Below are positions 3,558 through 15,207 of a stretch of 16,885 nt of DNA, one piece after another. The notes under the pieces are model-generated. The model was not told the DNA's origin. It saw only the letters and a list, made by a program, of their open reading frames with translations, and searched no databases. The stretch spans positions 1 to 16,885 of the forward strand of contig JBHLME010000097.1 of the NCBI GenBank assembly GCA_048938445.1, in the 5' to 3' direction. Every line of letters begins with the position of its first letter. Within the stretch, counting starts at the first letter, position 1. A program made the position numbers and the translations under genes. This DNA is from Promethearchaeota archaeon (GTDB lineage Archaea; Asgardarchaeota; Lokiarchaeia; Sigyniarchaeales; SOKP01).

Positions 3558-5108
3558 ATGGAGAAAGAGAGAGTTTTTTTACCAGGTGCCAGTGGTTCTA
3601 TGGGATTTGAGGCTTTTAGAAATTTATGGTTGAGACGAGATAAATATGATATTGTATTATTGCAACGACCATCAAAAAAAAATAAGAAAATTTTCAGATC
3701 TTATGAGAAACAATGTGGTATCAAACCTATAAAAGGTAGAGGAATTGTTGAAGGAACAGGATTAAAAATTATATGGGGTGATGCAACCAATTATGATGAT
3801 ATTTTCGAGGCATGTAAGGGAATAGATTGGTGTCTTTGTCCAATGGCTTTCATATCTCCAGCAGCAGATCGCAATCCTAAAATGGCAAAAGCAGTGAATA
3901 CAACTGCTATTGAATATATTGTGAAAGCAATTGAAGCTCAACCAAACGGAGCGGAACATATAAAATTTGTATATACTGGAACAGTTGCGGCAACCGGAGA
4001 TCGATTACCACCAATCCATATGGGGCGAATTGGTGATCCTTTAAAACCAAGTGTGTTTGATTTTTATGCTGTAACAAAAATAATGGGCGAAAGGGCAGTA
4101 TTAGAATCCAATATAAAACATTGGGCATCATTACGGCAGACTTTTATTATGATCCCTGATGTAATGTCTTTAATGGACCCTATAATGTTCCATCAACCAA
4201 TTAATTCTTTCATGGAAAATAATACTAATCGAGACGCTGGACGAGGATTAATTAACTGTCTGGACATTCCGGATGATTCGGATTTTTGGAAACGTGTTTA
4301 TAACATGGCAGGAGGTCCTTCTTGTAGGATAACCTTCTATGAATTCATGAATAAAACAATGGAAATGAATGGTGTTGGCAATACTGATGATGTCGCAGAG
4401 CGTAAATGGTTTGCATTACGTAATTTTCATATGCAATTTTATGAAGATAGCTGGATTCTCAATGAGTACATACATAACTGGGGAGATAGTGTCGAAGATT
4501 ACTTAAGAATAATGAAGGAAAATAGACCTTCTTATATTAAATTTGCTGCTTGGTTATCGGGTAAATCAAAAAGATTTAAAAAAATAGTACAAAACACGAC
4601 ACGCAAGAAATTAAAAAAACTGGCCTTAGATAAGACAGGAACGCTATATTGGTATGAAAATAAAAAAGACATGAGAATTTCAGCATTTTATAAGGACTAT
4701 GATACCTATGATGCCATACCAGATTGGGGAATAGACATGCCTCAAATAAATCCCCGACCAGAGTGGAAAAGGTTAGATCATGGGTATGATGAACAAAAAG
4801 GAACACTTAATTTAGAGGATTTAAAAGGAGCTGCTAGCTTCCGGGGTGGACAATGCCTTTCAAGCGAATGGGATGGGGACCTCTATTCAACATTAACTTG
4901 GAAATGTGCTTTTGACCATGAATTTAAAGCAAAACCATTCACAATTATAAAAGCAGGGCATTGGTGTCCAGAATGTCTAGCCCCACCATGGAATTATGAT
5001 GAAATCGCAAAAAAAAATCCTTTTTTTGCCCAAGTATGGTATCCTAACCATGATAAAAATGAACACAATTTTTATCCAGAAGATTGTTATTTAGATATTG
5101 CTGATTAA
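3558..5108 (+). CDS. Extended SDR (NAD-dependent epimerase/dehydratase family) with C-terminal Zn-ribbon-like domain
   Basis: PGASGSMG nucleotide-binding motif, GDAT, catalytic YAVTK, and C-terminal WKCAFDHEF...HWCPEC. SD AGGTGA at 3545-3550. Confidence 0.88.
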   Translation: MEKERVFLPGASGSMGFEAFRNLWLRRDKYDIVLLQRPSKKNKKIFRSYEKQCGIKPIKGRGIVEGTGLKIIWGDATNYDDIFEACKGIDWCLCPMAFISPAADRNPKMAKAVNTTAIEYIVKAIEAQPNGAEHIKFVYTGTVAATGDRLPPIHMGRIGDPLKPSVFDFYAVTKIMGERAVLESNIKHWASLRQTFIMIPDVMSLMDPIMFHQPINSFMENNTNRDAGRGLINCLDIPDDSDFWKRVYNMAGGPSCRITFYEFMNKTMEMNGVGNTDDVAERKWFALRNFHMQFYEDSWILNEYIHNWGDSVEDYLRIMKENRPSYIKFAAWLSGKSKRFKKIVQNTTRKKLKKLALDKTGTLYWYENKKDMRISAFYKDYDTYDAIPDWGIDMPQINPRPEWKRLDHGYDEQKGTLNLEDLKGAASFRGGQCLSSEWDGDLYSTLTWKCAFDHEFKAKPFTIIKAGHWCPECLAPPWNYDEIAKKNPFFAQVWYPNHDKNEHNFYPEDCYLDIAD

Positions 5109-5159: not shown

Positions 5160-5344
5160 TAAAGGGCAAATTTAATTATATTTATTAAAATGTCGAATTA
5201 AATATATAAATAGTAGGCAGTTATATAATAATAATAATAAATTATTCAGAAAATTGTTATTTCCGATCATTATAAGGCTTATCAACGATCCAGAATGATC
5301 ATAGTAACTATTTTTAAAAAAATAGAGGTGGTGTGAAGAAATCG

Positions 5345-7282
5345 ATGGAAAATAAAAATTCTCATCGGATTGGATACTATGCTTGTCAGTGAGGGATAAA
5401 TATTCGTGGTAAAGTTGATTGCAACAAGTTAGTAGAATACGCAAAAAATATTGATGATGTCGTTATTTCAAAAAGTCATGCTTTTCTATGAACTGAAAGT
5501 GGTCAAAATGAGATTATTGAAGATATTAAAGAAAAAAAATTAGATAGAATAGTTGCTTCTGCTTGAACACCACGCACGCACGAACCCATTTATCGTGGGT
5601 CAATAGCAAAAACTGAGATAAGTCCTTATTATTTTCAGATGGTCAATGTTCGAGAGCATGTTAGCTGGTGTACCGAAGATAATGGAGAAGCGTTAGAAAA
5701 AGCAAAAATCTTGGTAAAAAGCGGAGTAGAACGTTCAAGATTATTAGAAGATATCCCTGTTAAAACTGTGCCTGTTGAACGAGCAGCTTTAATAGTAGGA
5801 GGGGGAATAGCTGGCATGAACGCAGCTTTAGATCTAGCAAATCAAGGATTAAAAGTTTATTTAGTCGAGATAAAAACGACAATAGGAGGTAGGATGGCAC
5901 AATTAGATAGGACTTTTCCTACTGATGATTGTGCGATATGAATCTGTGGGCCAAAGATGCTTGAAGTAAATCGACATGAAAATATAGAAATTATAGCTAA
6001 TTCGCAGGTTTCGAAAGTAGAAGGATATGTAGGGAATTATGAAATTACAATTAAAAAGGAACCTTGGTTTACTACAGATGAATGTAATGGCTGTGGTGCA
6101 TGTTCCGAAGTTTGTCCAGTTTACACTTCTAATTATTTTGATGAATATTTAGGTGCGCGAAAAGCTATAGATATATCGTTTGGTCAAGCCGTTCCTTTTA
6201 GGTATAATATCGATAGAAATTCATGTATTGAATGTTTTAGCTGCGTTGATGCTTGTGAATTACACGCGATTGATTTCAGTCAAGTCGAAGAAGAAGTAAA
6301 AGTAAAAGTCGGAGGGATCATTATAGCAACAGGTTGGGATATTTATGAACCGTTTGGAGAATATGGTTATGGTGAATATCTGAATGTTGTTACTCAAAAC
6401 CAATTAGAACGAATGTTAGCTCCGAATGGACCGTTAGAGGGACACGTTCGAAGGCCTTCAGATTTGAAAACACCTAAGGAAATCGTCTTTATAAATTGTG
6501 TGGGAAGCAGGGATACAGAAAGAACTTTTTGTAGTGGTGTTTGTTGTATGATAGGATTGAAGAATGCTAAACTACTCAAAGAAGAGTTTCCTGATGCTAA
6601 CATTACCATTTGCTATATAGACATGAGAACAGTTGAAAAGGGTTTCGAGGAATACTACCAAAGGGCTAAAGAATCTAATATTAGGTTAATTCGTGGGAAA
6701 GTTGGTGAAATTTCTGAAGATCCTGAAACAAAGAATATTAATCTAAGAGTTTATTCATCGTTGACCGACGAAATTATTAAGATTAAAGCAGAGCTCGTAA
6801 TTTTATCTAGTGCGGGTTTACCTTCAAAAGGTACAGGACAAATAGCTAAAGTTTTAAATTTAGATGCTGATAGAAATGGTTTTCTAACTGAATCTCATTT
6901 TGGATTAATGCCACAAGAGACTAAGACAAAAGGTATATTTATTGCAGGATGGGCTCAAGGCCCCAAGGATATAGCTTATTCGGTTTCACAAGCTAGAGCT
7001 TGTGCAAGTAAAGTTGCCGAAATGACGTCTGCAGGAGAAATAGATATTGAACTCATAGTCGCGGAGGTAGACAATGACTCTTGTATATCTTGTCAAAGAT
7101 GTGAGAAAGTATGTCCTAAAGGTGCAATTAAGATAATGGATGGAGAATATGCTGTTGTTGACGAGATAAATTGCGATGGGTGTGGAATATGTGCGACTTG
7201 CTGTCCTACTCTCGCAATTGATATAAGATATTATCGAGATGACCAATTATATGCTGAAATTGAAAGCATCCTAGGAGGTTAG
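5345..7282 (+). CDS. hdrA: Heterodisulfide reductase subunit A-like flavoprotein, selenoprotein with 4 Sec (645 aa)
   Basis: One continuous frame from ATG 5345 (alternative GTG 5333; SD-like GAGGTG 5325-5330) to TAG 7280-7282, interrupted only by TGA at 5390, 5489, 5564 and 5939 (U16, U49, U74, U199: ACQUGINI, AFLUTESG, ASAUTPRTHE, TDDCAIUICGPK). It joins ORF-track fragments 5639..5941 and 5957..7282. It contains the GGGIAG FAD motif, an inserted 2x[4Fe-4S] domain, the CVGSR...CSGVCC...K motif and a C-terminal 2x[4Fe-4S] domain. Length is typical of HdrA. Confidence 0.93.
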
Positions 7283-7287
7283 AACAA

Positions 7288-7749
7288 ATGAATGAAAAGT
7301 TAAATATTTTGATGTTTGCTTGCTTGAAATGAGGTTATAGTGCAGCAGATTTGGCTGGAGTCTCCCGTTTAAAATATACACCTTCTGTAAAAATATTGAA
7401 AGTCAGATGCACAGGAAGAATTGATATCAAGCATCTATTATTTGCTATCAAATCTGGAGCAGATGGAGTTATGATTGTAGGATGACGGCCAAATGAATGT
7501 CAGTTTAAAGATGGAAATTTTAAGGCAGAGTCTCATGTTGACCTGGCAAATCGGATTTTAGAAAGGCGTGGTTTTGGCAGCCAACGAATAAACCAATATT
7601 GGTTGAGTGGAGCAGAATCAGAGAAATTAGTCAAGAGTGTTGAGGATACTTTAGAAAAATTACTACGGATAGGTCCTAATCCCTTAAATTTAAACGGATC
7701 AAAAACAAAGAAAGAAGAAAAAGAAATAATAATAGCCCCTGTTGAATGA
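7288..7749 (+). CDS. mvhD: MvhD/VhuD/FlpD-family [2Fe-2S] subunit, selenoprotein with 2 Sec (153 aa); missed by the ORF track
   Basis: ATG 7288 with SD GGAGGT 7274-7279. Translation: MNEKLNILMFACLKUGYSAADLAGVSRLKYTPSVKILKVRCTGRIDIKHLLFAIKSGADGVMIVGURPNECQFKDGNFKA...GPNPL...APVE. TGA at 7330 (U15) and 7483 (U66) fall at conserved Cys positions. Ends at TGA 7747-7749 (TAA at 7756-7758 if read through). Confidence 0.93.
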
Positions 7750-7802
7750 ATCTTTTAATAAAATATTAGTTATAAGATGACAGACCTAGCAAAGGTAAGG
7801 GT
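7735..7802 (+). promoter_or_regulatory. Eukaryote-type SECIS element (kink-turn AUGA...GA core, apical AAA)
   Basis: 5' core AUGAA 7746-7750 and 3' core UGAC 7778-7781 (tandem G7748.A7780 / A7749.G7779). Upper helix UCUUUUAAU 7751-7759 pairs with GUUAUAAGA 7769-7777 (one U.U mismatch, one G.U). Apical loop AAAAUAUUA. Plausible lower helix CCUGUUG 7738-7744 with UAGCA..GG 7787-7795. Occupies the only sizeable intergenic gap in the operon. Folded by eye only. Confidence 0.8.
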
Positions 7803-7834
7803 ATCAATTAATAAAAAAAAATAAATATTAAATT

Positions 7835-9343
7835 ATGGTTCAAATAGAAAAGAATATTGAATTTAAAGGAATTTCTCCCAAGCAATTAATGGAAGCTACA
7901 TATTTTGCTTCTGAAAATTTTCAAGTGAGAGCATTTTATGAAGCAAAAGAAGAAATTCTTGCTATTGGAAAATATTCAGAAAAGGAATTTTATGAAATTC
8001 TTGATTCAATGATTGATGCTGAAACCGAACGTAAGTTAGTGCTTGAAAAATTGAAAGGACATAAGGCACTTTTTTTAGCTGAGATCATTAAAATTGTAAA
8101 GGATATACCTTCAATAAATGTTATAAGAGATATAATTTATTTAAAAGAGCAGGGTTATATCAAGGAAGAAATTGAAGTTAAAATTAAAAAAGTTATTAAG
8201 AAAATCAAAGGGGAAGAAAAAGAAGTAGAAGAGAAAGAATATTTCTATAGATATAAAGTGGATAAATTACCAGGTGATTTTTTAGAACATTTTTTTGAAC
8301 CCGTTTCTATTGTTTATGAATCTGGAGTATGTTGCCAATGCGGATGGTGTTCGTCTATTTGCCCCGTGAATGCAATTACTGTTGATGCTGATTCCTTGGA
8401 AATTGACGAAAAAACTTGTATGAAATGTGGATTATGCTTTTCGGTTTGTCCTCGTTCTTTTTCAATCGATCAAGCGTATAAGAACATCAAGCAATTAGAT
8501 AAATCTTTAAAGTGGTCTGATAAAGTTGGTGCCTATGTGAACATGTACACCGCATCCACGACTAAAAATGAAATTATTAAAGTACGTCAAGATGGAGGAA
8601 TAGTCACTTCAATTTTAGAGTATTTATTAAAAAATAAAATGGTTGATGCAATCGTAGCAGTTCAACATTCAAAAGATCTTTGGAAGCCAGAACCAGTAAT
8701 TATAGAAGATATCAAGGATCTTTATAAAACAGGAGGAACAAAGTATGCTAATTCTCCTTCATTAACTATTATTGATCAATGTAAGAAATATGAGAACATT
8801 GCTTTTGTAGGAGTTCCGTGTATGATGAAGGCAATTGAAAAAGGGTCCCTTTTTCCTAGTGGTTATGAATTTTTTAAAAATATAAAATATAAAATTGGTT
8901 TATTCTGTATGGAATCATTTCCTTATGATGGTATCATTCAATTAGCACAAGAACAATTCAAGAAAGATGTGAATGAACTAACGAAGATGAATATAGGAGG
9001 AGGTAAATTTATTATTAATTTAAAATCGGGAGAACAGATGGACGTGCCTTTAAAAGATGTCCAACAATATGCCCGAGATAATTGTCATTTTTGTGAAGAT
9101 TTAACTTCTGATTATGCTGATATCTCAGTAGGATCAATTGGTTCACAAGATGGTTGGTCTTCAGTCATTACCCGCTCTAAAGAAGCAGATAAAATTTTTA
9201 ATGATGTAGTGAAATCAGGGCTGGTTGAATATAAAAATCTAAAAGATGTTAAACCAGGACAATTTTTAGTAGAGAAGATTGGAGGGACAAAACGGGACAA
9301 ATGCAAGCCTATTGTTTTACAAAAAAATGATAAAAAAGATTAA
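7835..9343 (+). CDS. FrhB/FdhB-family (coenzyme F420 hydrogenase/dehydrogenase beta subunit-like) protein with ferredoxin domain and about 150-aa N-terminal helical/wHTH-like extension
   Basis: CCQCGWCSSICP and CMKCGLCFSVCP clusters; FrhB motifs QDGGIVT, GTKY, VGVPC, IGLFCME, CHFCED, ADISVGSIGS..GWSSVITR. Confidence 0.88.
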   Translation: MVQIEKNIEFKGISPKQLMEATYFASENFQVRAFYEAKEEILAIGKYSEKEFYEILDSMIDAETERKLVLEKLKGHKALFLAEIIKIVKDIPSINVIRDIIYLKEQGYIKEEIEVKIKKVIKKIKGEEKEVEEKEYFYRYKVDKLPGDFLEHFFEPVSIVYESGVCCQCGWCSSICPVNAITVDADSLEIDEKTCMKCGLCFSVCPRSFSIDQAYKNIKQLDKSLKWSDKVGAYVNMYTASTTKNEIIKVRQDGGIVTSILEYLLKNKMVDAIVAVQHSKDLWKPEPVIIEDIKDLYKTGGTKYANSPSLTIIDQCKKYENIAFVGVPCMMKAIEKGSLFPSGYEFFKNIKYKIGLFCMESFPYDGIIQLAQEQFKKDVNELTKMNIGGGKFIINLKSGEQMDVPLKDVQQYARDNCHFCEDLTSDYADISVGSIGSQDGWSSVITRSKEADKIFNDVVKSGLVEYKNLKDVKPGQFLVEKIGGTKRDKCKPIVLQKNDKKD

Positions 9344-10465: not shown

Positions 10466-11725
10466 GTGAATACCATAACTGAAATTAGTAAAAAGACTAA
10501 ACAAGGGGAAAGTGAACAAGTAGAAAGAGAAATTTTACCTGATTTAAAGGACCTTTTAAAAAGGTGTTATCAATGTGGAAGATGTTCAGGAGTTTGCCAA
10601 CTTTCAAAAGTCGAAAAATTTACTCCAAGCAAGATTATTCAACTTATCTTGGAAGGATTTGAAGAAAAAGTATTAAATAGTGGAATTCTATGGGATTGTT
10701 TAACTTGTAATCATTGCCTTCAAAATTGCCCTCAAAATATAAATTTTGCCGATGTAGTGAGAATCGCGCGCTATAAAATGAGTAAACTCAAAAAGCAGAA
10801 TGTGGATGATTATATAGCCCATAAAGGAATGTATACTACAATTTCTGAAATAATGAGCAAAAGCAACATCCAACCAAAGAGAAATCTTGACTGGATTCCT
10901 AAGAATGTGAAAGTGTCTCATGAAAAAGGAGATATTTTATATTATGTAGGGTGTCTACCCTATTTTAATTATGAATTTGAAAATATTAACCCCATTGCCG
11001 AAAATACTTTAAAATTAATATCCAAAATTGAAAATAAAGAAATTTTAGTTTTTAAGGATGAAATATGCTGTGGACATGATATTTATTGGGGTCAGGGAAA
11101 AATAGATGAATTTATAAATTTAGCTAAAAAAAATATAAAAAAATTTGATGACGCAAAAATTTCAACGATAATTACGGCATGTGCCGAGTGTTATAGAACT
11201 TTCTTAGTAGACTACCCCAAAATTTTTAATAATTTTAAAGAACGATTTGAAGTTAAACATATAATTGAATATATTTATGATAATTGGAAAAATAATAAAA
11301 TAAAATTTAAAATTCCTAAAAAAAGTAAACAGGTACATTTTACATTTCATGATCCTTGTCGTTTAAGTCGATTTTTACCTAAGGATAATATGATTTTAGA
11401 AGAAAGTCGTGAGATTTTTAATTTCTTAAAAAAATTAGGATATAATTTTAAAGAAATGACTCATAACAAAGAAAATTCGCTTTGTTGTGGTGTTAGTTCT
11501 TGGATGAATTGTAATGAAAAATCCAAAGCTTTAAGATATAAGCGAATGCTTGAGGCTAAAGATGCTGGAGAAGTCATGGTAACTTCATGTCCAAAATGTC
11601 GAATTCATTTCCAATGCCTTCAAAATGATTATGAAAATATCGCTTCTATTCAAATATTAGATTTCTCTGAATTCTTAGTAGACCTTGTGGAACCAATTAA
11701 CCCAAATACGAAAAATGGTGGTTAA
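10466..11725 (+). CDS. HdrD/GlpC-like Fe-S oxidoreductase (HdrC-like 2x[4Fe-4S] plus two CCG domains)
   Basis: CYQCGRCSGVC and CLTCNHCLQNCP; CCG domain 1 YYVGC...CCG...CAEC; CCG domain 2 FHDPC...CCG...CPKC. GTG start; no TM segments. Confidence 0.88.
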   Translation: MNTITEISKKTKQGESEQVEREILPDLKDLLKRCYQCGRCSGVCQLSKVEKFTPSKIIQLILEGFEEKVLNSGILWDCLTCNHCLQNCPQNINFADVVRIARYKMSKLKKQNVDDYIAHKGMYTTISEIMSKSNIQPKRNLDWIPKNVKVSHEKGDILYYVGCLPYFNYEFENINPIAENTLKLISKIENKEILVFKDEICCGHDIYWGQGKIDEFINLAKKNIKKFDDAKISTIITACAECYRTFLVDYPKIFNNFKERFEVKHIIEYIYDNWKNNKIKFKIPKKSKQVHFTFHDPCRLSRFLPKDNMILEESREIFNFLKKLGYNFKEMTHNKENSLCCGVSSWMNCNEKSKALRYKRMLEAKDAGEVMVTSCPKCRIHFQCLQNDYENIASIQILDFSEFLVDLVEPINPNTKNGG

Positions 11726-11727
11726 AA

Positions 11728-14700
11728 ATGATGGAGGGGGCAGTATTAGTTATTGGAGGTGGGATTGCCGGAATCCAAACTTCCTTAGACTTAACAGAAT
11801 TGGGTTATAAAGTTTATCTTGTCGAAAAATCACCTTCAATTGGTGGGCGCATGGCTCAACTTGATAAAACATTTCCAACCAATGATTGTAGTTTATGCAT
11901 ATTAGCACCTAAAATGGTAGAGGTCTTTAGAAATCCTAATATTGAATTAATGACGTACCATGAAGTTAAAAAGGTTTCAGGAAAACCCGGAAATTTTACT
12001 GCAACTATCTTAAAAAAACCTCGATATGTAGATGAAAATAAATGTAAAGGATGTGGTGATTGTGCATCCAAGTGCCCAAAAATCGAAGTTCCTAATATTT
12101 TCGATATGAATTTGGGTAAAAGAAAATCTATATATATCCCATTCCCTCAAGCCGTTCCTCCCATATATGTAATAGATCCTGAATTATGCTTGAAATTAAC
12201 CAAAGGGGTGTGCGGAGTATGCAGTAAAGTATGTCAAGCAGATGCTATTAATTATGAGCAAAAACCTAAGGATATTCAAATTAAAGTGGGTGCAATTGTC
12301 GTTGCTACTGGTTTTGACATGCCAGCAGAAAAATTATCATCACGGTGGGGATATCAATACAAAAATGTTGTTTCTGCTTTAGAATATGAACGAATTTTAT
12401 GTGCCTCAGGTCCTTTTGGTGGTCATGTATTGCGACCTAGCGATCAAGAAGAACCCATAAATATTGCTTTTATTCAGTGTGCGGGTTCAAGAGACTTACA
12501 TGAAGGTGTTCCCTATTGTTCTAGTGTTTGTTGCATGTATACCGCGAAGGAGGCAATCATTACTCAAGAACATTCTGAAAATTCTAATTGTTTTGTTTTT
12601 AGACATGACATACGTGCCTATGGAAAGAATTTTTATGAGTTTACTGAACGTGCTCAAGAAGAATATGGTGTGAAGTATTTTCAAACGAAAATTAGCAAGA
12701 TAAATGAAGATCCTGAAACAAAAGATTTACTCATCCATTATGAAAATTTAAAGACAGGAAAATTCGAACAATTTAGGGCAAATCTGGTTGTTCTAGCAAC
12801 ACCTTTAGTACCTTCAGCAGGAAATAATGATTTAGCAGGAATTTTAGGTGTTGAATTAGATGAATATGGTTTTTTTAAAGAACGATCTTATTTTAACAAA
12901 TCAATGTCCTCTAAAGAGGGAATATTTTTATGTGGATTTTGTCAAGGTCCAATGGATATTCCTGAAACCGTTGCTGATTCTAGCGGTGTCGCATCTCAAG
13001 TTGCATCTTTACTTCATTCAGTATCATATACACAATTAGAAGATAACATACCTGAAATCGAAGAAAAGGAGGTTTTACAATCAGATGAGCCTCGCATTGG
13101 AGTTTTAATTTGTCATTGTGGAATAAATATTGGTAAGTACGTAGAGGTTCCAAGTGTAGCCGAATACGTAAGAACATTACCCAATGTTATTTATTGCGAG
13201 GATAATTTATATTCCTGCAGTTCTGACTCTCAAGCAAGGATAAAGGAAGTAATTAATGAATATAAATTAAATAGGTTTATCGTAGCATCTTGTACTCCTA
13301 GAACTCATGAAGCATTATTTCAAGAAACTTGTGTTGAAGCAGGCTTGAATAAATATTTATTCGAAATGGTGAACATCCGTGATCAATGTTCTTGGGTCCA
13401 CATGGAAGAACATGAAGCCGCAACTCAAAAGGCTAAAGATCTCATTAGAATGGCTGTAGCTAAAGCAAGATTACTAGAACCGTTGAAAGAGGAAGAAATT
13501 GAGATTGCCCCCACTGCCCTAGTTATTGGTGGTGGAATTTCTGGAATGACAGCCGCATTAAATATTGCAAGTCAGAATTTTAAGGTATTTCTTGTTGAAA
13601 AGGAGAATGAATTAGGGGGCAATTTAAGGTATCTCAACCTGTTATACCCTGTAAGTTATGATGCTAATGCATTTCTCGATGAGACTATTTTAAAGGTAAA
13701 AAAAAATAAAAACATAGAAGTGTTTCTTAGTTCTAATATTAAAGATATTAAAGGTTATATTGGTAATTATAATGTCTCAGTGTTAGATGAGAAGGATAAA
13801 ATTCATGAATTAACCATTGGGACTATTATTGTCGCAACAGGTACTTTAGAGCATAAACCTCTTGGTCTCTTTGAATATAATGAAGGTAATAATAATGTTA
13901 TTACTCAATTGGAGATGGAACAAAAACTTAAATCTAAAGATAAATCTTGGCTTGAGAATATAAATCGAATAACAACTATTCTATGCGTAAATGCTAGGCA
14001 GAAAGAAGGAATTACATATTGCTCTAATGTATGTTGTGGAAATGCAATTAAAAATATTAGTTATCTTAAAGAATTAAAACCAGAGTTAGAAATTGTCGTG
14101 CTCTATAGAGATCTTCAAATGGCTAAGAAAAAATATGAAGAATATTATCGAAATCGTAGAAAAAATGCTATATTTCTGAGATATGATCTCGATAATCCGC
14201 CTGTTGTTTTTAAAAAGAGTAAAAAGCCTGAAAGTTATCAAATTAAAGTATTTGATACGAATTTACAGGAACAAATTGAATTTGAGACAGATTTAATAGT
14301 TCTTTCGACACCGATGATTCCACCAGATAATAAAGAATTAGCTAAAATGTTAAAGGTTCCAATGGATCGAAATGGTTTCTTTTTGGAAGCTCATGTCAAA
14401 TTAAGACCATTAGATTTTGCTACTGATGGAATTTTCTTGTGTGGGTGTGCACAATGGCCAAAAAATATTCAAGATTCGATTTCGCAAGCAAACGGAGCAG
14501 CGGGGAGGGCAAGTAGATTTTTAAATGCTAAGACAATAAAGACTTCTGGGATTGTTGCGGAATCAAATCCTATATCTTGCATCGGTTGTGGGCAATGTGT
14601 TGATGTATGTCCTTATAATGCTATAGAACTTGTAGTTGCAATAAAAGAATTTGAAGATATTAATATCTCTACAAACAAATCATTTATCAATCCTGCTTTA

Positions 14701-15207
14701 TGTAAAGGATGTGGAACATGTGCTGCAACATGTCCTAATGGTGCAATTTCCATAAAACATTATGATTTTGATCAAATTACAGCGATGATAGAATCATATT
14801 TCAATCCCGAGATTTTAGTATTCTGTTGTAATTGGTGTTCTTATGCTGGCGCTGATTTGGCAGGAGTTTCTAGATTTCAATATCCTCCTAACATGCGAAT
14901 TGTTAGAGTAATGTGTTCAGGAAGAGTAGATCCTTCATTTATCTTAAAAGCTTTTAAAGATGGTGCTGATGGTGTGTTAGTCAGTGGTTGCCATATAGGT
15001 GATTGTCATTATATATCAGGAAATGAATATACAAAAGAGCGGTTTGAGAGACTCCATGAGATAATTATTAAGCAATTAGGAATTAATGAAAAAAGATTAA
15101 GGCTTGAATGGGTAAGTGCTTCTGAAGGTAAACGTTTCGCAGATTTAATCACTGAATTTACTCATCAAATCAAAGAGTTAGGACCTTTTGAATCAGCTTC
15201 AAATTAA
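11728..15207 (+). CDS. hdrA: Large HdrA-like protein with two FAD-binding modules fused to a C-terminal MvhD domain (all-Cys)
   Basis: Domain order: GGGIAG + TNDCSLC + inserted ferredoxin + CAGSR..CSSVCC; internal RIGVLICHCG...YSCS...ASCTPRTHE...RDQCSWVH domain; second GGGISG module with CSNVCC; C-terminal 2x[4Fe-4S]; MvhD domain from about 14803 (FCCNWCSYAGADLAG...MCSGRVD...GCHIGDCHY). Confidence 0.92.
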   Translation: MMEGAVLVIGGGIAGIQTSLDLTELGYKVYLVEKSPSIGGRMAQLDKTFPTNDCSLCILAPKMVEVFRNPNIELMTYHEVKKVSGKPGNFTATILKKPRYVDENKCKGCGDCASKCPKIEVPNIFDMNLGKRKSIYIPFPQAVPPIYVIDPELCLKLTKGVCGVCSKVCQADAINYEQKPKDIQIKVGAIVVATGFDMPAEKLSSRWGYQYKNVVSALEYERILCASGPFGGHVLRPSDQEEPINIAFIQCAGSRDLHEGVPYCSSVCCMYTAKEAIITQEHSENSNCFVFRHDIRAYGKNFYEFTERAQEEYGVKYFQTKISKINEDPETKDLLIHYENLKTGKFEQFRANLVVLATPLVPSAGNNDLAGILGVELDEYGFFKERSYFNKSMSSKEGIFLCGFCQGPMDIPETVADSSGVASQVASLLHSVSYTQLEDNIPEIEEKEVLQSDEPRIGVLICHCGINIGKYVEVPSVAEYVRTLPNVIYCEDNLYSCSSDSQARIKEVINEYKLNRFIVASCTPRTHEALFQETCVEAGLNKYLFEMVNIRDQCSWVHMEEHEAATQKAKDLIRMAVAKARLLEPLKEEEIEIAPTALVIGGGISGMTAALNIASQNFKVFLVEKENELGGNLRYLNLLYPVSYDANAFLDETILKVKKNKNIEVFLSSNIKDIKGYIGNYNVSVLDEKDKIHELTIGTIIVATGTLEHKPLGLFEYNEGNNNVITQLEMEQKLKSKDKSWLENINRITTILCVNARQKEGITYCSNVCCGNAIKNISYLKELKPELEIVVLYRDLQMAKKKYEEYYRNRRKNAIFLRYDLDNPPVVFKKSKKPESYQIKVFDTNLQEQIEFETDLIVLSTPMIPPDNKELAKMLKVPMDRNGFFLEAHVKLRPLDFATDGIFLCGCAQWPKNIQDSISQANGAAGRASRFLNAKTIKTSGIVAESNPISCIGCGQCVDVCPYNAIELVVAIKEFEDINISTNKSFINPALCKGCGTCAATCPNGAISIKHYDFDQITAMIESYFNPEILVFCCNWCSYAGADLAGVSRFQYPPNMRIVRVMCSGRVDPSFILKAFKDGADGVLVSGCHIGDCHYISGNEYTKERFERLHEIIIKQLGINEKRLRLEWVSASEGKRFADLITEFTHQIKELGPFESASN

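Follow-up and report, generated by a model that had tools for sequence, protein, structure and literature searches.

A Loki-type SECIS element whose core UGA is also the vhuD stop codon in a Promethearchaeota archaeon: an overlap frequent among relatives and not fixed

The closest described counterparts of the element treated here, a selenocysteine (Sec) insertion sequence (SECIS) at the 3' end of the vhuD gene of a Promethearchaeota archaeon, are the lokiSECIS elements of Lokiarchaeota. According to the available text of Mariotti 2016 (PMC4989117), these combine an AUGA motif, a stem of 9 base pairs (bp), a loop of 11 nucleotides (nt) that begins A-rich and ends in an ultraconserved G, in most cases after an A, and a GA (or AA). 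The same text argues that a UGA too close to the SECIS is not recoded, notes that hdrA never ends in UGA, and reports that the Loki genes give no hits with SECIS tools for archaea, bacteria or eukaryotes. In the available text of Huang, Xiao and Zhang 2024 (PMC11227280), the UGA stops of Lokiarchaeia selenoprotein genes are said to overlap the AUGA motif often.

We analysed a window of 16,885 nt (contig JBHLME010000097.1 of the Promethearchaeota archaeon (Lokiarchaeia) metagenome-assembled genome (MAG) GCA_048938445.1; "the window" means this whole stretch), and within it positions 7735-7802. Comparative sequence evidence confirms this segment as a genuine Loki-type SECIS, as described for Lokiarchaeota and ordinary for the lineage. 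Its core UGA (7747-7749) is in frame with vhuD (mvhD) and ends the gene, as an initial annotation made from the sequence alone had read it. It is very probable that a bicistronic hdrA-vhuD messenger RNA (mRNA) has this as its only SECIS, of the Loki type (Asgard, eukaryote-like, type I), and that the overlap of stop and core is a tolerated by-product of tight packing, not a dedicated device. The two genes and the parts of the element are as follows.

5333-7282, plus strand: hdrA, with a TAG stop; its GTG start, from the list of open reading frames (ORFs), is putative
7288-7749, plus strand: vhuD/mvhD (FlpD family), with UGA 7747-7749 as its stop
7735-7739, plus strand: 5' strand of helix I, the short G-C lower helix, inside the Ala and Pro codons of vhuD
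7740-7745, plus strand: 5' side of the internal loop, identical with the Val and Glu codons of vhuD
7746-7749, plus strand: AUGA core, conserved without exception in the 56 aligned orthologs; its UGA (7747-7749) stops vhuD
7750-7758, plus strand: 5' arm of helix II, holding the in-frame back-up TAA 7756-7758
7759-7769, plus strand: apical loop of 11 nt, with A at loop positions 2-5 and AG as its last two bases
7770-7778, plus strand: 3' arm of helix II, pairing with 7750-7758
7779-7781, plus strand: the 3' core GA (7779-7780) and then a nearly invariant C, from the sequence and the ortholog alignment
7784-7796, plus strand: small hairpin of 4 bp with a 5-nt loop, on the 3' strand between core and helix I
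7799-7802, plus strand: 3' strand of helix I, from folding and covariation

Read with TGA as Sec, hdrA contains four in-frame UGA codons (5390, 5489, 5564 and 5939) and matches the Fer4, Pyr_redox_2 and FAD domains of Pfam, while vhuD contains two (7330 and 7483) and matches PF02662 (FlpD/MvhD; E 8.1e-40, residues 7-129 of 153). The gap between the genes is 5 nt, and the six Sec-UGAs sit 263-2356 nt 5' of the AUGA of the SECIS. At all six positions an HdrA-HdrA-MvhD fusion encoded at 11728-15207 has Cys. This layout is shared with the lokiSECIS loci in the available text of Mariotti 2016 (PMC4989117): one element past vhuD for both hdrA and vhuD, as many as six UGAs spread over about 2 kb, an hdrA that ends in UAA or UAG, a vhuD stop that may be UGA, and a very short gap. 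The window element also shows every sequence and structure feature listed in that text, and we find no difference in kind; the use of the AUGA as a stop is named there for VhuU.1 only, and the window comes from a different MAG of the same phylum. With the Asgard eSECIS-like type I elements, as given in the available text of Huang 2024 (PMC11227280), it shares the core 5'-GA_[G/A]A-3', an upper stem within 7-15 bp and a loop within 8-20 nt, as well as the provision of one element common to hdrA and frhD/vhuD.

The architecture can be followed base by base. Helix I pairs 7735-7738 with 7799-7802. Helix II (7750-7758/7770-7778) has 9 bp, eight of them standard pairs and one a U.U (7755/7773). The initial annotation had proposed a eukaryote-like element, and core, stem and loop indeed stand as published; its helix of about 10 bp has to be corrected, since the relatives agree with 9 bp and an 11-nt loop, not with 10 bp and a 9-nt loop. 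The two counts differ because a U-G closing pair had been included that relatives do not keep: their first loop base is mostly A, also G or U, and the opposite base is an invariant G. Three loop A's and the final loop G are invariant in the aligned orthologs, and the GA just 5' of the AUGA is nearly invariant, coding or noncoding alike. At the 3' core, the 56 register-fitting orthologs (including L026, which has a 12-nt loop) carry GA in 45 cases and AA in 11.

With eukaryotic SECIS elements of form 1 the element has in common an AUGA and a GA so placed that tandem G.A pairs can form, A's left unpaired in the 5' part of the loop, a lower helix, an internal loop, and a site at the mRNA 3' end from which it would act over a distance. 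It is unlike them in its 9-bp stem from core to A's, in its lack of an Rfam match, in its overlap with coding sequence and in serving two cistrons. SBP2 was not detected in Loki, according to the available text of Mariotti 2016 (PMC4989117). The vhuD SECIS of Methanococcales and Methanopyrus is likewise found at the 3' end of its gene, where it serves two vhuD UGAs; the same text describes AUGA and GAC/AAC adjoining its main stem. A methanogen-type GAA_A bulge flanked by G-C clamps does not occur within 7735-7802.

That the hairpin belongs to a family, and is not a chance structure, is indicated by searches of its own genome. A strict motif was defined as AUGA, 9 nt, a loop that has AAA at positions 2-4 and ends in AG, another 9 nt and GA, 8 or more of the 9 pairs being required. 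The 4.6-Mb genome contains it 10 times, and none of 10 first-order Markov genomes contains it at all. All 10 are found no farther than about 20 nt from the end of an ORF containing an in-frame TGA; these ORFs comprise four FlpD/VhuD proteins, one SelD-like protein, one VhuU-like peptide of 50 amino acids (aa), and four without a Pfam match. We then scanned with a covariance model, R1, built from nine SECIS sites of the same genome with the window excluded. R1 matches the window at 7740-7791 with 44.2 bits (E 4.6e-8; E 1.3e-5 genome-wide), the only significant site there, and genome-wide the window site ranks 10th, right behind the nine training sites. A better-supported SECIS elsewhere in the window was sought and none was found by R1, nor any between hdrA and vhuD. 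A separate SECIS for hdrA was considered and rejected, the next-best R1 match (5514-5559) scoring 14.0 bits (E 0.34) with its stem mostly unpaired.

Orthologs were collected by a six-frame search of 81 genomes of the same family, the named relatives being Promethearchaeota (Lokiarchaeia) MAGs. The search gave 61 rows at E <= 4.1e-54, the next row standing at E 1.0e-33; one locus (G035), cut by a contig end, was dropped before all counts, which leaves 60 loci including the window. Fifty-five of these fit a 9/11/9 geometry, one has a 12-nt loop (L026), and four of one genus (L059-L062) differ; the latter were excluded from the plain MAFFT alignment (56 loci) and retained in the tally of stops. 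In these four loci (genus g8) the UGA stop of vhuD abuts the AUGA, the apical part is longer, the 3' core is apparently AA, and a strong C5/G5 lower helix is retained.

Across the 56 aligned orthologs the initial annotation's hairpin is borne out by covariation. Helix II is paired in 94.2% of cells and changes on both sides in 7 of its 9 pairs; helix I (80.9%, both-side changes in 4 of 5 pairs) and the small hairpin (91.7%, 1 of 3 pairs) have paired percentages that are underestimates because the flanks in the MAFFT alignment are partly out of register. Overall pairing reaches 89.9%, against 81.9% in shuffles, and cells changed on both sides number 78, against 25.4; none of 500 shuffles reaches the covariation score, and controls with slid partners are 42-56% paired. 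The R1 score, the motif count set against simulated genomes and this covariation together rule out a chance hairpin.

The 3' strand deserves separate description. In orthologs L004-L058 a small hairpin lies 2-4 nt past the 3' GA-C, with 3-4 bp and a 5-nt loop that is often N-G-C-N-A, and the G-rich strand of helix I comes next; by eye, small hairpins of like form also appear 3' of the other SECIS elements of this genome. Within about 30 nt past the small hairpin, 43 of the 60 orthologs have a run of at least four T's, mostly directly after the G-rich 3' strand of helix I. Such runs are what would be looked for if the hairpin were mainly a transcription terminator or an mRNA-stabilising 3' structure and not a SECIS. 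We regard this as highly improbable, given that the window itself has no T run downstream of its small hairpin, that termination requires neither the invariant AUGA, the GA and the A-rich loop nor the fixed 9/11/9 geometry, and that the motif is found in the genome only beside ORFs with an in-frame UGA. In relatives, a combined role as SECIS and terminator or 3' structure is possible.

How constant the overlap of stop and core is can be read from the 60 loci. The core UGA, at +1 relative to the A of AUGA, is the first in-frame stop past the second Sec codon in 34 of them, in 7 of 10 genera. Relative to the same A, the stops are distributed as follows.

UGA at +1, the core UGA: 34 loci
UGA at -3, abutting the AUGA: 6 loci
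UAG at -4: 8 loci
UAA at -6 to -18: 12 loci

By genus, tallied by hand, the overlap is present in these proportions of the loci examined.

genus g1: 3 of 3
genus g2: 12 of 20
genus g5: 1 of 1
genus g6: 3 of 6
genus g9: 1 of 2
genus g10: 1 of 1
genus g11: 13 of 16
genus g3: 0 of 6
genus g8: 0 of 4
genus g12: 0 of 1

On a quick maximum-likelihood tree of VhuD, made with the last 12 residues removed and poorly resolved (27 of 57 inner branches open), the 60 orthologs require at least nine changes between overlap and no overlap. Stops also vary among the three further vhuD paralogs of the window's own genome, at -3 (UGA), -4 (UAG) and -20 (UAA); two VhuU-like genes (contigs C158 and C176) end at the core UGA of their SECIS, as described for VhuU.1. 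The one on C176 (91014-91066, minus strand) is a second VhuU-like gene of 50 aa, in which the stem looks one pair longer than 9 bp. Across these loci the overlap is thus a frequent and well-tolerated state and not a fixed one: it alternates with stops 3-18 nt upstream and has changed at least nine times on the tree. To the question raised in the initial annotation, whether the overlap is conserved, the answer is that it recurs in 34 of 60 orthologs and is neither special nor fixed. That annotation had also drawn attention to the TAA or TAG stops of the other genes in the window. This is correct (8 TAA and 2 TAG among the 10 others) and uninformative: genome-wide, TGA ends 509 and TAG 340 of 2872 stop-to-stop ORFs of at least 200 aa, so UGA is an ordinary stop in this genome and the contrast with the neighbouring genes carries no weight.

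These counts bear on the idea that the overlap is an adaptive, translation-coupled switch, in which terminating ribosomes melt the SECIS and so gate or reset Sec insertion at the six upstream UGAs. Among the orthologs no state is commoner than the overlap, which persists in 24 of 27 rows of one clade, and none of the 60 loci has its stop more than 18 nt from the AUGA, which would oblige each terminating ribosome to open at least helix I. Against a switch stand the repeated changes of state, the varied stops of the vhuD paralogs in the same genome, and the fact that an overlap is expected by default in roughly one frame of three. In addition, the available text of Peiter and Rother 2022 reports that in M. 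maripaludis a SECIS (of the methanogen type) placed directly after the coding region works with no apparent impairment. We therefore judge such a switch very unlikely, and find no support for the proposal of the initial annotation that termination transiently switches off Sec insertion upstream.

In the reading that we prefer, with the overlap as a by-product, one SECIS would direct Sec insertion at the six predicted upstream positions, probably by recruiting the Sec elongation factor. Packed as it is against the end of vhuD, the SECIS would let the reading frame run into its flank and end at the first in-frame stop. With UGA 7747 in the ribosomal A site, the mRNA channel would already have unwound helix I, the core and part of helix II; lacking a folded SECIS, the ribosome would not be served by the Sec elongation factor, and a release factor would terminate. 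Occasional read-through of UGA 7747 would give two more residues and then meet TAA 7756. The initial annotation's view that a ribosome at this UGA melts the SECIS and thereby prevents recoding matches published reasoning, as far as the available texts of Mariotti 2016 (PMC4989117) and Huang 2024 (PMC11227280) go.

Components for such decoding are encoded in the genome. A selB match on contig C108 lies barely above its cut-off (243.3 against 242.25 bits), about 4.6 kb from a candidate tRNA-Sec on the opposite strand (C108 40439-40558, at the contig end; also C157 3-72) that has a UCA anticodon, a long variable arm and a possible 9-bp acceptor stem. The same synteny of selB and tRNA-Sec is described for Loki in the available text of Mariotti 2016 (PMC4989117). 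In the candidate about 30 nt are inserted in the D-arm region, and the T arm is intact; the Loki tRNA-Sec has a 31-nt intron in the T loop, according to that text.

With Sec machinery in the organism, UGA 7747 could itself be decoded as Sec to a meaningful degree, giving a VhuD that ends in Sec-Ile-Phe at TAA 7756. The frame agrees with the initial annotation on this point: the gene closes with ...APVE-UGA-I-F-UAA, the next in-frame stop after the core UGA is TAA 7756-7758, and read-through would add only U-I-F. Among the 34 overlap loci a back-up TAA is found at +10 in 26 and at +13 in 5, a regularity that could be taken as a sign of use. The extension codons, though, are the 5' arm of helix II and co-vary with compensating changes in its 3' arm, so the constraint acts on the RNA; the peptides themselves vary (IF, IL, VL, FL, LL, NL, SL, ILK and TLK). 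In the remaining 3 of the 34 loci the next stop comes only after about 27-31 codons, and read-through would add about as many residues. The back-up stop is usual, not required, and in most loci simply part of the conserved stem. The minimal distance between UGA and SECIS is also the argument published against recoding, in the available text of Mariotti 2016 (PMC4989117). Appreciable decoding of UGA 7747 as Sec thus seems very unlikely.

The same logic of an RNA that happens to be translated probably extends upstream of the core. In the ortholog alignment, 16-20 nt before the AUGA are kept as RNA, translated or not: in loci with a UAA at -16 (L004, L006 and L010) near-identical nucleotides are 3' untranslated region, and in overlap loci (L012 and L013) they encode TTPVE. 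One frame through the 5' flank of the SECIS contains UAA at -16 and UAG at -4, a different frame leads to the core UGA, and the stop that vhuD meets depends on the frame in which it enters the flank. This frame is probably set by insertions and deletions in the Lys/Glu-rich linker past the FlpD domain. The last four to five codons of VhuD (APVE here, TTPVE in most relatives) would accordingly represent helix I and the internal loop in translation.

It is also conceivable that the vhuD lokiSECIS is a larger junction, made up of the covarying G-C helix I (whose 5' strand is translated as TTPVE in many genomes), the small 3' hairpin and, in most relatives, the T run, and that SECIS, stop and transcript end form one module reset by each termination. 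We hold this to be unlikely. If it were true, the position of the stop would tune the availability of the SECIS to the six upstream UGAs.

A number of points weigh against our account of a single SECIS with a merely tolerated overlap. The orthologs are mutually related, so that their counts are not independent and the covariation figures overstate independence; the direction of the covariation is clear in the alignment despite this kinship. The fold energy of the element is no better than chance (minimum free energy -13.5 kcal/mol, z = -1.12, with 26 of 200 shuffles equal or better), and in the minimum-energy fold the 3' GA is paired to the 5' internal loop instead of entering G.A pairs, a pair type absent from the energy model. 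The likeness to eukaryotic elements noted in the initial annotation does not extend to the SECIS families of Rfam: no SECIS match appears in the whole window at E up to 10, where only two unrelated weak hits were obtained, and no family of any kind matches within 7700-7835. This silence agrees with the report in the available text of Mariotti 2016 (PMC4989117) that existing SECIS tools miss these elements. The candidate tRNA-Sec is below its Rfam cut-off (39.5 against 47 bits), and aragorn makes no tRNA-Sec call. Since the overlap is the commonest state, weak selection for it is possible, and that it is merely tolerated is inferred from its changeability. Finally, the available literature text yielded no experimental test of any lokiSECIS in its own host, and a 2025 paper in RNA Biol reports, in its available text, that a lokiarchaeal SECIS was not functional in Methanococcus maripaludis.

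Several further loci were noted in passing. A weak R1 match on contig C214 (62711-62762, plus strand; 32.7 bits) has AGGA in place of AUGA and follows an ORF whose last part is similar to the C-terminus of HdrA; this could be a SECIS in decay or a variant one. On contig C53 (about 11300-12830; locus L064 2037-3532) there is a tandem array of three small ORFs, every one with a Loki-type SECIS of its own no more than 10 nt from its stop. In-frame UGAs, adjacent UGA-UGA pairs among them, are clustered in these ORFs, which have no Pfam match at E up to 0.001 and may belong to the Prx-like family, to other published selenoprotein families or to undescribed ones. In the window itself, the fusion at 11728-15207 (plus strand) has 1159 aa, with two HdrA-like modules and a C-terminal MvhD/FlpD domain. 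Between it and the hdrA-vhuD pair lie two FrhB-like genes and an HdrC/HdrB-like gene (CCG domain). A 516-aa ORF at 3558-5108 (plus strand) has no Pfam match at E up to 1e-5.

Published work already covers this type of element, the service of one element to both hdrA and vhuD, and stop codons formed by the UGA of AUGA, and little is added here as discovery. What this analysis contributes is the overlap in 34 of 60 loci with its repeated flips, a VhuD tail that would be dictated by RNA, and a covarying lower helix with a 3' hairpin. An overlap count for vhuD, its repeated gain and loss, an RNA origin of the tail and the small 3' hairpin were not found in the available literature text, although Tables S1 and S4 of Mariotti and Table S4 and Fig. 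S11 of Huang may hold stop counts and lower-stem features; in the available text of Huang 2024 (PMC11227280), lower-stem features are given for frhA and selD and not for hdrA/frhD, and a small hairpin on the 3' strand is not mentioned. These observations should be of use in designing reporters or covariance models of Asgard SECIS elements. For the VhuD family, they suggest that the RNA dictates the conserved C-terminal tail, and they counsel caution against calling that tail a protein motif.

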